Of a stretch of 33,752 bases of DNA, positions 7,543-9,066 are shown piece by piece. Position 1 is the stretch's first letter. Each line of letters opens with the position of its first letter. Position numbers and translations under genes: made by a program. Origin of the DNA: Candidatus Woesearchaeota archaeon (GTDB taxonomy: Archaea; Nanobdellota; Nanobdellia; Woesearchaeales; JAADFO01); contig JAFGPE010000046.1 of the NCBI GenBank assembly GCA_016926055.1, forward strand, positions 1-33,752, given 5' to 3'. Below the pieces are notes generated by a model. It did no database searches. It had not been told where the DNA came from and was given only the letters and a program-made list of their open reading frames with translations.

Positions 7543-7550
7543 TTTTTAAA
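7543..7550 (+). promoter_or_regulatory. TATA box of the first tRNA-Leu locus
   Basis: TTTTTAAA about 24 nt upstream of 7574, the start of the duplicated tRNA 5' end. Confidence 0.55.
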
Positions 7551-7573
7551 ACAGAGTTAATTCTCCTTGCATC

Positions 7574-7628
7574 GAGGGGATGCCGGAGAACATCTGGCGT
7601 TCCGGCGCCGGTGTCTGGACTGGCCAAA
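7574..7628 (+). repeat. Duplicated tRNA-Leu 5' fragment containing a 32-nt BHB-type intron (7589-7620) at position 15/16
   Basis: GAGGGGATGCCGGAG[insert]TGGCCAAA equals the first 23 nt of the tRNA at 7631 with one mismatch. Helix CCGG(7583-86)/CTGG(7615-18), bulges AG^A and AC^T, inner stem ACATC/GGTGT. Confidence 0.75.
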
Positions 7629-7630
7629 AT

Positions 7631-7794
7631 GCGGGGATGCCGGAGTGGCCAAACGGGATAGATTTCCGACGTCAAGGCGCTAGAAAATCCAAACTCAAGT
7701 TATTGAGTGATGAGGTCCTAAAAGGATCGATGAAATGCTCTATGGGCCATCTATTGGCTTAGTGCCTACGGGGGTTCAAATCCTCCTCCCCGCA
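7631..7794 (+). tRNA. tRNA-Leu(CAA) with two introns: 7662-7692 (30/31) and 7700-7748 (37/38)
   Basis: Acceptor GCGGGGA/TCCCCGC with A73, long variable arm, T-arm GGGGG-TTCAAAT-CCTCC. Intron 1 BHB: GGAT/ATCC, bulges AG^A and AA^A, inner TTTC/GAAA. Intron 2 BHB: CTCA/TGGG, bulges AG^T and CC^A. Spliced arm is ATAGA-CTCAAGA-TCTAT. Confidence 0.88.
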
Positions 7795-7857: not shown

Positions 7858-7955
7858 TGTCAAAAACCACCGGTCAAAGACCAGCGGCATGTTGCTTCGT
7901 AAGCGACAGAAGATGTAATGGTTTTTGACACCTCGGAATTCTACGAATGACCGGT
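7858..7955 (+). ncRNA. Structured leader or element upstream of the LAGLIDADG gene
   Basis: Perfect 12-bp IR TGTCAAAAACCA(7858-69)/TGGTTTTTGACA(7919-30) enclosing hairpins GGTC-AAA-GACC and TGTTGCTT-CGT-AAGCGACA. Additional 8-bp pairing ACCGGTCA(7869-76)/TGACCGGT(7948-55). Confidence 0.65.
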
Positions 7956-7962
7956 AGTTTAA

Positions 7963-8724
7963 ATGAATAGTCAAAAAATAGAAAATAAAGATTTGTTAAT
8001 CAATTCGGAAATTGCTGAACTCTTAGGTGTGTTTATAGGAGATGGCTGGATTGAAAGGGATAAAGACGCACTTTACATAACTGGAAGCCAAACTGAAGAT
8101 AAAGATTATTATGATTATCACCTAGGACCATTATTTTCTAAGCATTTCTCAAAGGTAACTCCTAAGCAATTTGATTATTGGGGAGTTTATGGAATTGTAA
8201 CCTATAAAAAAGAAGCCATTAACAAAGCAATAAACCTCGATTTCCAAGTGGGACGCAAGTCTTTAGTTACAAAAATTCCTCGATACATAATGGATGCAGA
8301 AAATAAAGATATTTTTAAAGCTATTTTAAGGGGTTTATTTGATACAGATGGTTGTTTTTGGTGTGAAAAGTCAAGAGCTAAAACATCTACAAAATGGAAA
8401 AGAACACACAATTATCATCCTGAACTGAGGATTACTTCGTGTTCCAAGATGTTATTAGAGCAAGTTCATTGCTTATTAGACAGACTAGATATTGATTCTA
8501 AGGTTATTCAAAAAAGCAGAAGGGGTTTCAAAAGCGGAAGAAACGTACATGATTCTTACGCTTTGAATATCAGAAAGATTGAGGAAATTGAAAAATGGTT
8601 CAAGATTATTGGAACTAATAACCCCCGACATAAAACAAGATGTGGTGTCTGGAAGAAACTCGGTTATTTGCCATCAAACACAACAATGGAGATGAGGAAA
8701 AAGTTGTTAAACGTTAATAGGTGA
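7963..8724 (+). CDS. Free-standing two-motif LAGLIDADG (DOD-type) homing endonuclease
   Basis: Motifs AELLGVFIGDG and AILRGLFDTDG, both with the terminal acidic residue. No intein splicing blocks. Visibly more AT-rich than flanking housekeeping genes. Confidence 0.9.
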   Translation: MNSQKIENKDLLINSEIAELLGVFIGDGWIERDKDALYITGSQTEDKDYYDYHLGPLFSKHFSKVTPKQFDYWGVYGIVTYKKEAINKAINLDFQVGRKSLVTKIPRYIMDAENKDIFKAILRGLFDTDGCFWCEKSRAKTSTKWKRTHNYHPELRITSCSKMLLEQVHCLLDRLDIDSKVIQKSRRGFKSGRNVHDSYALNIRKIEEIEKWFKIIGTNNPRHKTRCGVWKKLGYLPSNTTMEMRKKLLNVNR

Positions 8725-8827
8725 GGTCCCATCCCCTCAGTTTACGAATGGGATGAATTAATCATTGTTTCCCGTTAAACTGGGCCATTGAAAATAGAGG
8801 ACAAGAAATTTTTTAAGCAATAATTAT

Positions 8828-8835
8828 TTAAATAA
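8828..8835 (+). promoter_or_regulatory. TATA box of the second tRNA-Leu locus
   Basis: TTTAAATA about 25 nt upstream of 8860. TTAATTCTC lies just before the duplicated 5' end at both tRNA loci. Confidence 0.55.
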
Positions 8836-8859
8836 AACCGAAACACTATTAATTCTCTT

Positions 8860-8922
8860 GCGAGGATGCCGGTAGTGGAAATCTGTGATTTCCGGACCGT
8901 CATCTTCTCAACCCGAAGGTCT
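8860..8922 (+). repeat. Duplicated tRNA-Leu 5' end (13 nt) followed by a structured insert
   Basis: GCGAGGATGCCGG at 8860-8872 is identical to 8923-8935. It is followed by hairpin GGAAATC-TGT-GATTTCC, then CCGGAC, and CATCTTC complementary to GAGGATG. Confidence 0.7.
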
Positions 8923-9025
8923 GCGAGGATGCCGGAGCGGCCAATGACAGAAATGTCGGCCATACGGGCTAGGTTCAGGGCCTAGTGGCTTAGTGCCTAC
9001 GGGGGTTCGAATCCCCTTTCTCGCA
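8923..9025 (+). tRNA. tRNA-Leu(CAG) with a 19-nt D-loop intron (8945-8963)
   Basis: Acceptor GCGAGGA/TTCTCGC with A73; anticodon arm CTAGG-TTCAGGG-CCTAG. Intron motif is helix GGCC/GGCC, bulges AA^T and AT^A, inner GACA-GAAA-TGTC. Splicing restores GGCCAAACGG as in the first tRNA. A T-run follows. Confidence 0.93.
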
Positions 9026-9066
9026 TTTTTTCTTTAGTAACCTATTTAAATAAGTATAAACTCTAG

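Follow-up and report, generated by a model that had tools for sequence, protein, structure and literature searches.

A duplicated, intron-bearing tRNA-Leu(CAA) 5' end beside a LAGLIDADG endonuclease gene of a Woesearchaeales archaeon: a candidate snapshot of tRNA intron loss

The tRNA-Leu(CAA) locus and its duplicated 5' end

The stretch of DNA analyzed in this work (further called the window) is a contig of 33,752 nucleotides (GenBank accession No. JAFGPE010000046.1, forward strand) from Candidatus Woesearchaeota archaeon. It is contig C96 of the genome bin labelled G000 (1.62 Mb, 172 contigs, 86% complete), and the source organism belongs to the order Woesearchaeales, in which more than 130 families and genome sizes of 0.6–2.7 Mb are found. 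The locus considered here comprises, on the + strand and in this order, a complete tRNA-Leu(CAA) gene (7631–7794), a gene of the LAGLIDADG homing-endonuclease family (7963–8724), and a tRNA-Leu(CAG) gene (8923–9026). The first of them is preceded by a partial copy of its own 5' end, which is interrupted by a 32-nt insert (7574–7628). This partial copy (the "outer copy") and its relation to the complete tRNA-Leu(CAA) gene (the "inner gene") are the main subject of this report.

The Rfam scan of the window indicated a single tRNA, i.e., the inner gene (38.3 bits; cut-off 29), and ARAGORN in its default mode detected none, which is a warning that tRNA genes of such architecture get missed or mis-started during annotation. 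With ARAGORN in the intron mode, Rfam, and a T-loop/acceptor scan, about 25 tRNA genes were detectable in G000, and several others are probably still hidden, since many of these genes carry long or multiple introns. For the comparative analyses, two sets of genomes of the same order were used: 121 genomes were screened for the 15/16 intron pattern and for endonuclease homologs, and 401 genomes for a Leu-specific pattern of hairpin units.

The inner gene is a candidate for the functional tRNA. It contains one intron at position 30/31 (7662–7692), for which the bulge-helix-bulge (BHB) finder indicated the H helix GGAT/ATCC, and another at 37/38 (7700–7748), and it is devoid of 15/16 and T-loop introns. 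The spliced sequence was recognized by ARAGORN as an 84-nt class II tRNA-Leu(CAA) with a fully paired (7/7) acceptor stem including C2:G71, and a run of five T residues directly follows 7794.

The archaeal promoters have a TATA element centered at about −26/−27. The only TATA-like box found upstream, TTTTTAAAA (7543–7551, + strand), is positioned so that its center plus about 27 nt gives a transcription start near 7574, and the region 7590–7615, inspected by eye, is GC-rich and without such a box. This agrees with an earlier note on this DNA, made from the sequence alone, in which the start was placed near 7574 and not at 7631. The outer copy (also on the + strand) opens at that point with orphan exon 1, GAGGGGATGCCGGAG (7574–7588), which corresponds to nt 1–15 of the tRNA and shows 14/15 identity to 7631–7645, the difference being A2 versus C2. 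After the insert (7589–7620), the copy continues with the start of orphan exon 2, TGGCCAAA (nt 16–23; 7621–7628), identical to 7646–7653, and the two pieces thus form a collinear copy of nt 1–23 of tRNA-Leu(CAA). The breakpoint at 7628 adjoins a recurrent D-loop intron site, which is occupied in the tRNA-Leu(CAG) gene of the window (8945–8963), in the ortholog from G012, and in G188/G299; the view of the earlier note that introns really use this site was thereby upheld. The AT dinucleotide ahead of G1 of the inner gene (7629–7630) is identical to the 5' flank of the orthologs from G012, G026, G035, and G044.

Exact 11-mer end repeats were found in G000 at 2/25 tRNA 5' ends and 2/25 tRNA 3' ends and in none of four controls, and the probability that the end duplication arose by chance is therefore negligible. 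It might also be supposed that the assembly mis-joined reads of strains that have the 15/16 intron with those of strains that lack it, as the sequence comes from a metagenome bin of 172 contigs and assembly of a single DNA run gave no contig across 7300–7619. However, the copies differ at position 2 and have unique sequence between them, the contig is 33.7 kb long, and analogous structures are present in many independent assemblies, because of which an artefact seems scarcely credible. Judging by the sequence, we regard both the duplication and its intron as real.

The insert (7589–7620, + strand) has the features of a relic BHB intron at position 15/16, as was also proposed in the earlier note. 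The BHB finder indicated a central helix formed by CCGG (H; 7583–7586) and CTGG (H'; 7615–7618) with one G-U pair, the bulges AGA and ACT, an inner helix of 5 bp (ACATC/GGTGT), and an outer helix of 0 bp; the predicted cuts (7588|7589 and 7620|7621) fall exactly at the boundaries of the insertion. Archaeal tRNA genes reportedly contain non-canonical and multiple BHB introns, including introns of the relaxed HBh' type, and the element at 7589–7620 resembles the latter in its 4-bp central helix, two 3-nt bulges, at least one flanking helix (the inner one), and cuts after the second base of each bulge. The locus is also similar to known multi-intron tRNA genes in that the 15/16, 30/31, 37/38, and 59/60 sites are all used in orthologs of the window's gene.

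When insertions separating TGCCGGAG from TGGYCAAACGGG were sought, a 15/16 intron was revealed in 3 of the 121 genomes (G020, G044, and G105), each time in a syntenic tRNA-Leu(CAA) gene preceded by the same gene for a coiled-coil protein, and these intron-bearing genes are working-looking in their sequence. The intron of G020 (23 nt) shares the CCGG AG|A...CTGG AC|T motif with the window. The gene of G044 (L175, G044:C32, about 1490–1720) has four introns (15/16, 30/31, 37/38, and 59/60), which, to our knowledge, is as many as described for one archaeal tRNA gene, or more. In G105, the leader bears a hairpin unit that is separate from the 15/16 intron of the gene. Since three syntenic tRNA-Leu(CAA) genes carry 15/16 introns, the 7589–7620 insert is, on these sequence grounds, a homolog of working-looking introns. 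Further copies of the 32-nt insert were found neither in the genome nor in the retrieved loci.

Part of the insert, TCTGGCGTTCC (7593–7603), is antisense to nt 4–14 of the orphan exon, and in the best predicted fold of the leader (7574–7630) these two segments are paired (−28.6 kcal/mol, z −3.3, 0/200 shuffles as good). The BHB fold reaches −15.0 kcal/mol as drawn and −19.2 kcal/mol when enforced, which is 9–13 kcal/mol worse than the best fold, and the ensemble probability of its helices is about 0. By thermodynamic prediction, the fold suited to EndA is thus not the favored one at the 15/16 motif. In this respect the element differs from the usual BHB introns, and also in that it lies in a fragment probably outside any mature tRNA.

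The same predictions bear on one of the alternatives offered in the earlier note, a four-intron tRNA with the mature start at 7574, from which 7589–7620, 7628–7652, and the 30/31 and 37/38 introns would all be spliced. The TATA spacing fits this reading, its 15/16 and D-loop sites are genuine intron sites, a four-intron tRNA-Leu(CAA) does exist in G044, and ARAGORN accepts the spliced product as tRNA-Leu(CAA). However, although removal of 7589–7620 restores nt 1–23 collinearly, the fragment if used gives an A2:G71 mismatch, foreseen in the note and confirmed by ARAGORN, and the outer strand pairs instead, in 7/7 positions, with a 3' strand localized far downstream. The GGCC AA|A motifs thought to excise 7628–7652 are present (7622–7628 and 7647–7653), but the BHB finder indicated neither an inner nor an outer helix of at least 3 bp around them. 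The more stable alternative fold of the 15/16 region and the absence of repeat-restoring BHB-like motifs from 8 of 15 end-copy loci also speak against this reading. The note had further suggested looking for RNase P in the genome; its RNA is encoded there (108.3 bits versus an 84-bit cut-off), so that a 57-nt leader can be removed. We consider a four-intron tRNA very unlikely, and the outer copy probably does not serve as an exon in any working tRNA.

The comparison with six genomes of other families of the same order gave a consistent picture of where the conserved gene begins, as their matches start at query positions 90–94, i.e., 7629–7633 (in G012 in two pieces, from position 90). In four of these six orthologs (L007, L010, L011, and L012), TATA is localized immediately upstream and the outer copy is absent. 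The inner gene, introns included, is 73–88% identical to these orthologs from other families, and genomes of the same family yielded only short matches with different intron sets. Such cross-family likeness of the inner gene fits, without proving, its import as a cassette.

The orphan 3' end and the endonuclease gene

The product of the gene at 7963–8724 (253 aa, + strand) matched the Pfam families PF14528 (LAGLIDADG_3; E-value 6.8e-11, 42.7 bits, cut-off 22.5) and PF00961 (23.2 bits, cut-off 23.1). It is a predicted homing endonuclease, whose cleavage of an endonuclease-free allele is presumed.

The partner of the outer acceptor strand was found directly behind this gene. The strand GAGGGGA pairs perfectly (7/7), including the diagnostic A2:U71 pair, with TCCCCTC at 8732–8738, which begins 8 nt past the endonuclease stop codon and is followed by A. 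The respective 8-mer, TCCCCTCA (8732–8739), is expected 0.0017 times in the 136-nt spacer and, by arithmetic from the per-position rate, about 0.013 times in all the sequence that separates the two tRNA genes. It is part of a longer stretch (8700–8739, + strand) resembling the tail of a T-loop (59/60) intron with an orphan last exon, T-CCCA-TCCCCTC-A (8727–8739). The segment 8700–8745 aligns to the T-loop-intron tail and last exon of G044 with the common AAGTTGTT...GT|CC, at a score of 27, which 6 of 5000 random genome windows reach, and the 8700–8739 stretch aligns also to the T-loop-intron tail and last exon of G153. The orphan last exon lacks one base of the T stem and, in our reading, its splice motif no longer pairs, for which reasons we regard the 3' relic as dead. 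A living five-intron outer tRNA with a T-loop intron of about 950 nt was considered as well and ruled out, as one base is missing from the last exon and the 3' splice motif is, in our reading, unpaired with TTCA.

The outer copy and the stretch at about 8700–8739 have the appearance of opposite ends of a single older gene, which would have had the A2:U71 pair and introns at 15/16 and in the T loop. We lean, with moderate confidence, toward interpreting 7574–7628 as the orphaned, intron-bearing front end of this older tRNA-Leu(CAA) gene, split by a cassette composed of a complete tRNA-Leu gene and the endonuclease gene. The second alternative of the earlier note, in which an intron-less 5' end was placed behind the ancestral, intron-bearing one, fits best, and it would be part of a larger event that includes the orphan end (8727–8739) behind the LAGLIDADG gene. 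In spirit, the locus would then resemble, as we think somewhat probable, the snapshot of intron loss imagined there, extended by the 3' relic and the endonuclease.

From these relationships we infer the following order of events, including the role of the endonuclease. An endonuclease-linked tRNA-Leu cassette would have entered the resident gene at or near its intron sites (D-loop position 23 and T-loop 59/60), most likely through a double-strand break followed by copying from another allele, and in this way two introns would have been by-passed in a single step. The old promoter would still drive transcription from about 7574, the 57-nt leader would fold on itself, and RNase P would free the inner tRNA at 7630|7631. 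If this is true, endonuclease-driven allele replacement at intron sites is a testable mechanism; it would also account for the long, structured, RNase P-dependent leaders of some tRNA genes of small symbiotic archaea.

Homologs of the endonuclease (E-value ≤1e-30) were found in 5 of the 121 sampled genomes, G000 included, and comparable arrangements of tRNA fragment, endonuclease gene, and tRNA gene exist in three other genomes. In G142, a LAGLIDADG gene (59% identity) comes after tRNA-Leu(CAA), with an orphan 3' exon (nt 38–73) of another acceptor type behind it. At this locus (L173, G142:C19:13200–14120), the open reading frame (ORF) has 252 aa and the orphan exon starts 4 nt after it, exactly at position 38, i.e., the canonical intron site; the acceptor strand of the orphan exon is TCCCCGC versus TTCCCTC in the complete upstream gene. 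G119 has tRNA-Leu(CAA), then a LAGLIDADG gene (58% identity), and then an orphan 3' end with a strong T-run. In G078, a decayed 5' fragment of tRNA-Leu (about 22 nt) is followed by the LAGLIDADG gene and a complete tRNA-Leu of other type, and in G065 and G041 more distant homologs (33–35% identity) each have a tRNA-like gene within about 45 nt downstream. Altogether, the endonuclease family is localized beside tRNA genes at 6/6 loci examined, and orphan tRNA-Leu pieces are present at 4/6 of them, the breakpoints coinciding with intron sites or lying close to them (D loop 22/23, 37/38, and 59–61).

These arrangements allow a wider but doubtful proposal, which we put forward tentatively. In these Woesearchaeota-type archaea, a LAGLIDADG family settled within or next to sites at which tRNA genes carry BHB introns (D loop, 37/38, and T loop 59/60) might spread by exchanging the resident tRNA gene for its own linked, endonuclease-resistant copy, producing nested genes, orphan ends, and loss of several introns at once, and the hairpin units described in the next section might be ORF-less derivatives or repair scars of this process. 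If true, it would be the first protein-coding (endonuclease-bearing) lineage of tRNA introns in archaea and would offer a concrete explanation, at the DNA level, of fast tRNA intron loss and allele turnover.

Several observations weigh against the cassette interpretation of the window. With only 13 nt, the orphan 3' end is short; one nucleotide of it is deleted, and in our reading its BHB motif is not intact, so that the homology rests on about 40 nt. An A2-type allele was not found in the three other genomes of the family, because of which A2 could be a simple mutation and the 8-mer a coincidence (p of about 0.002–0.013). Since nt 24–58 of the old gene are absent, its replacement is deduced and not seen. 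The LAGLIDADG homologs of G011, G030, G188, and G397 are localized on contigs other than those with the unit-bearing tRNA-Leu loci. Two metatranscriptomes of the same study as the DNA run gave no match on the stretch. Finally, the 11-bp antisense of the insert to the outer copy, with the best fold formed in this very way, is a hallmark of the hairpin units.

Hairpin units duplicating tRNA ends

The hairpin unit in its textbook form is found in the window itself, in the leader of the tRNA-Leu(CAG) gene (8860–8922, + strand). In it, an exact copy of nt 1–13 of this tRNA is followed in turn by the hairpin GGAAATC-TGT-GATTTCC, by the antisense segment CCGTCATCTTCTC, and by a spacer of 13 nt, and its predicted fold has −25.3 kcal/mol (z −3.4). 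The tRNA-Leu(CAG) gene that follows (8923–9026, + strand), with its D-loop intron (8945–8963), was identified by the BHB finder and by ARAGORN run on the spliced product. The TATA of this gene (about 8824–8837) is positioned for the nt 1–13 copy and not for the tRNA, and the 14 nt preceding the copy at 8860 (TTAATTCTC-TTGC) resemble those preceding 7574.

The Leu-specific pattern of such units was found in 7 of the 401 genomes, and its reversed control in none. Units are also present at 3' ends, in mirror image, and they form tandem arrays of up to three. In the 5' units, the spacer is reverse-complementary to the GAGCGAAGC-type motif with which the 3' units begin, and both are therefore one kind of element in two orientations. 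The units come and go within genera: at the tRNA-Leu(GAG) locus of genus g162, the species carry 0, 1, 2, and 2 units, and genera g162, g30, and g139 each have both filled and empty 5' sites. When compared with mononucleotide shuffles, 24 of 27 units fold at z ≤ −2, and unit 2 of G188_C2 is decayed (z −0.6). The two strands were compared in order to tell selection on the RNA from selection on the DNA; the top and bottom ones were the more stable in equal numbers of 5' units (7/7) and in 8 versus 5 of the 3' units, with 25 G-U pairs on the top and 24 on the bottom strand.

The outer copy of tRNA-Leu(CAA) could itself be explained as such a mini-unit, i.e., a copy paired with its own antisense (a mobile insert or by-product of break repair) and unrelated to any old allele, with RNase P freeing the inner tRNA. 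We rate this explanation as rather unlikely, and it ranks as the main rival because the CAA leader has the copy-plus-antisense trait of the units. The textbook unit at tRNA-Leu(CAG), the pattern in the seven genomes, the gain and loss within genera, and the stable folds of most units, the CAA leader (nt 4–14 with 7593–7603) among them, are all in its favor, as are the end copies found in G000 at the tRNA-Glu gene (C74) and at C68, C25, and C75. On the other hand, the copy at 7574 runs on collinearly into the D loop with TGGCCAAA, exactly from the intron end predicted by the BHB finder, which no typical unit does, and its insertion site and motif match those of real 15/16 introns, whereas G105 carries a unit and such an intron separately. 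Moreover, the A2 strand is perfectly paired by 8732–8738, and the hairpin of the CAA leader is GC-rich and unique, unlike the A5/T5 hairpins of the units.

A further possibility is that the leader is a functional helper, the spare 5' strand being kept for a role in the precursor RNA, where, as decoy or chaperone, it could hold the 3' acceptor strand or protect the 5' end during splicing. With the promoter where it is, the transcript would begin with the copy, the leader has a strong predicted structure, and the top strand of the CAA unit is 12.6 kcal/mol more stable than the bottom one, with four G-U pairs. However, the 27 units show no clear strand bias, some units have decayed or are missing from congeners at the same locus, and in G126 a unit precedes an intron-less tRNA. 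In addition, in the minimum free energy (MFE) fold of the full precursor (7574–7794) the 3' acceptor strand pairs with 7631–7637, and the outer copy makes no contact with it, and a helper role seems to us clearly unlikely. The units may be mobile inserts, repair scars, or leader elements.

LAGLIDADG genes are not constant neighbors of the units: besides the four genomes mentioned above, whose homologs lie on other contigs, no homolog was found in G085. Splicing between the outer and inner copies (exon swap) was rejected as a general mechanism, since repeat-restoring BHB-like motifs are absent at 8/15 loci. At the remaining end-copy loci, the BHB-like motifs have inner helices of 0–1 bp and outer helices of 0–2 bp, except for one motif of C68 (outer helix of 5 bp).

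As regards mobile elements, the order of parts in a unit (target, short hairpin, antisense, hairpin, target copy) is similar to the guide-hairpin-cleavage-site order of IS200/IS605 single-strand transposons, in which a guide sequence next to a hairpin recognizes the cleavage sites by base pairing (PMC3201880 and PMC5934647), and such likeness could explain the tandem arrays. In contrast to these transposons, the antisense of the units has 7–13 nt and not 4 nt. The comparison applies to units such as 8860–8922 and not to 7574–7628. A Y1 transposase (PF01797) was detected in two of five genomes tested (G000, 74 bits, and G249) and not in G188, G397, and G011, and the hairpins flanking the transposase gene of G000 are GC-rich and unlike the unit hairpins. 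Because of this distribution and of the dissimilar end hairpins, the Y1 transposase is an unlikely mobilizer of the units and is retained only as an analogy. The transposase locus of G000 (L166, G000:C165:2982–6329) has a single IS200-like Y1 gene at 1456–1908 (140 aa, with the HVH and Y motifs), the hairpin behind its stop codon, CCCCGCACT/AGTGCGGGG, equals the sequence of a tRNA-Leu acceptor stem, and a GAGCGAGCGTAGCGAGC motif is localized upstream.

Two further duplications in G000 are worth describing. At G000:C74:2168–2470, a tRNA-Glu gene is nested between a copy of its first 15 nt, placed 158 nt upstream after a TATA, and a copy of its last 12 nt, placed 53 nt downstream before a T-run. 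At G000:C135:28380–28600 (− strand), a 77-nt insert lies between perfect 63-nt direct repeats, in which the end of the S10 ribosomal protein gene (3' side) is joined by 22 nt, and end-duplicating inserts are therefore not confined to tRNA genes. The insert contains the module GyGTAGGAAyrrAGTrACTACr, which shows a compensatory stem change and is common to the trailers of the tRNA-Leu(GAG) gene of C25 and the tRNA-Thr gene of C75.

Comparison with known systems and neighboring features

Free-standing homing endonucleases spread together with neighboring markers, as does SegB of phage T4 in the tRNA gene region. The locus of the window is similar in that an endonuclease gene is localized beside tRNA genes and a resident allele was apparently replaced by the linked one. 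It differs in being part of an archaeal chromosome, in encoding a LAGLIDADG and not a GIY-YIG enzyme, and in the gene fragments left on both sides.

The gain, loss, and shuffling of protein-spliced tRNA introns of archaea is a long-standing question, and direct intermediates are very rare, tRNA-Thr of Caldiarchaeum being the main one. The closest published case is the tRNA-Thr(GGU) fragment with mobile-element intron gain in Caldiarchaeum subterraneum (Sugahara et al. 2012, PMC3293823). A 5' tRNA fragment is localized there upstream of a complete copy, as in the window, with a direct repeat, differing intron content, and mobile DNA between or adjoining them, and the case was interpreted as intron gain or loss captured in progress. 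In that case the repeat flanks a 1.8-kb recombinase element, and site-specific integration of the pNOB8-like type was proposed (PMC3293823), whereas in the window a complete gene lies between the 5' and 3' relics. The window differs from that case also in its linked gene, which encodes a LAGLIDADG endonuclease, in the distance of only 2 nt between the 5' relic and the new gene, and in the breakpoints at intron sites. The Pfam scan of five ORFs, taken from the genes adjoining the two tRNA genes of the window, gave no integrase match among these five. The relics would be the 5' end and the 3' end of one gene and not two copies of one core, as an attachment-site (att) duplication would leave.

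Homing-endonuclease genes are known in the BHB introns of archaeal rRNA genes (PMC4496867 and PMC6125680), and the window is similar to these cases, since its LAGLIDADG ORF abuts a sequence resembling the 3' end of a BHB intron with an exon. The difference is that the host would be a tRNA intron and that the intron is no longer intact. In the literature searched, which did not cover subscription journals, we found no account of tRNA-end hairpin units in DPANN archaea, of tRNA genes nested between two orphan ends, or of an archaeal tRNA intron with a LAGLIDADG ORF in it or at it.

With regard to the remaining features of the locus, the EndA catalytic domain is encoded in G000 on contig C33 (99 bits). 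The protein encoded upstream, used as a query against the genome contigs, yielded no confirmed relative among them. Between the inner tRNA gene and the endonuclease gene (7859–7929), there is an 11-bp perfect inverted repeat, GTCAAAAACCA/TGGTTTTTGAC, around the mini-hairpin GCTTCGTAAGC, and its stem is of the A5/T5 type, as in the tRNA-end hairpin units. The 37/38 intron of the inner gene may bear a guide RNA. It contains GTGATGA (7707–7713) and CGATGAA (7728–7734), similar to C and C' boxes, and the region 7704–7735 gave a weak match to the C/D-box family sR5 of Rfam (11.6 bits versus a 40-bit cut-off). Such C/C'-like motifs are also seen in the orthologs of this intron from G012, G030, G011, and G044.

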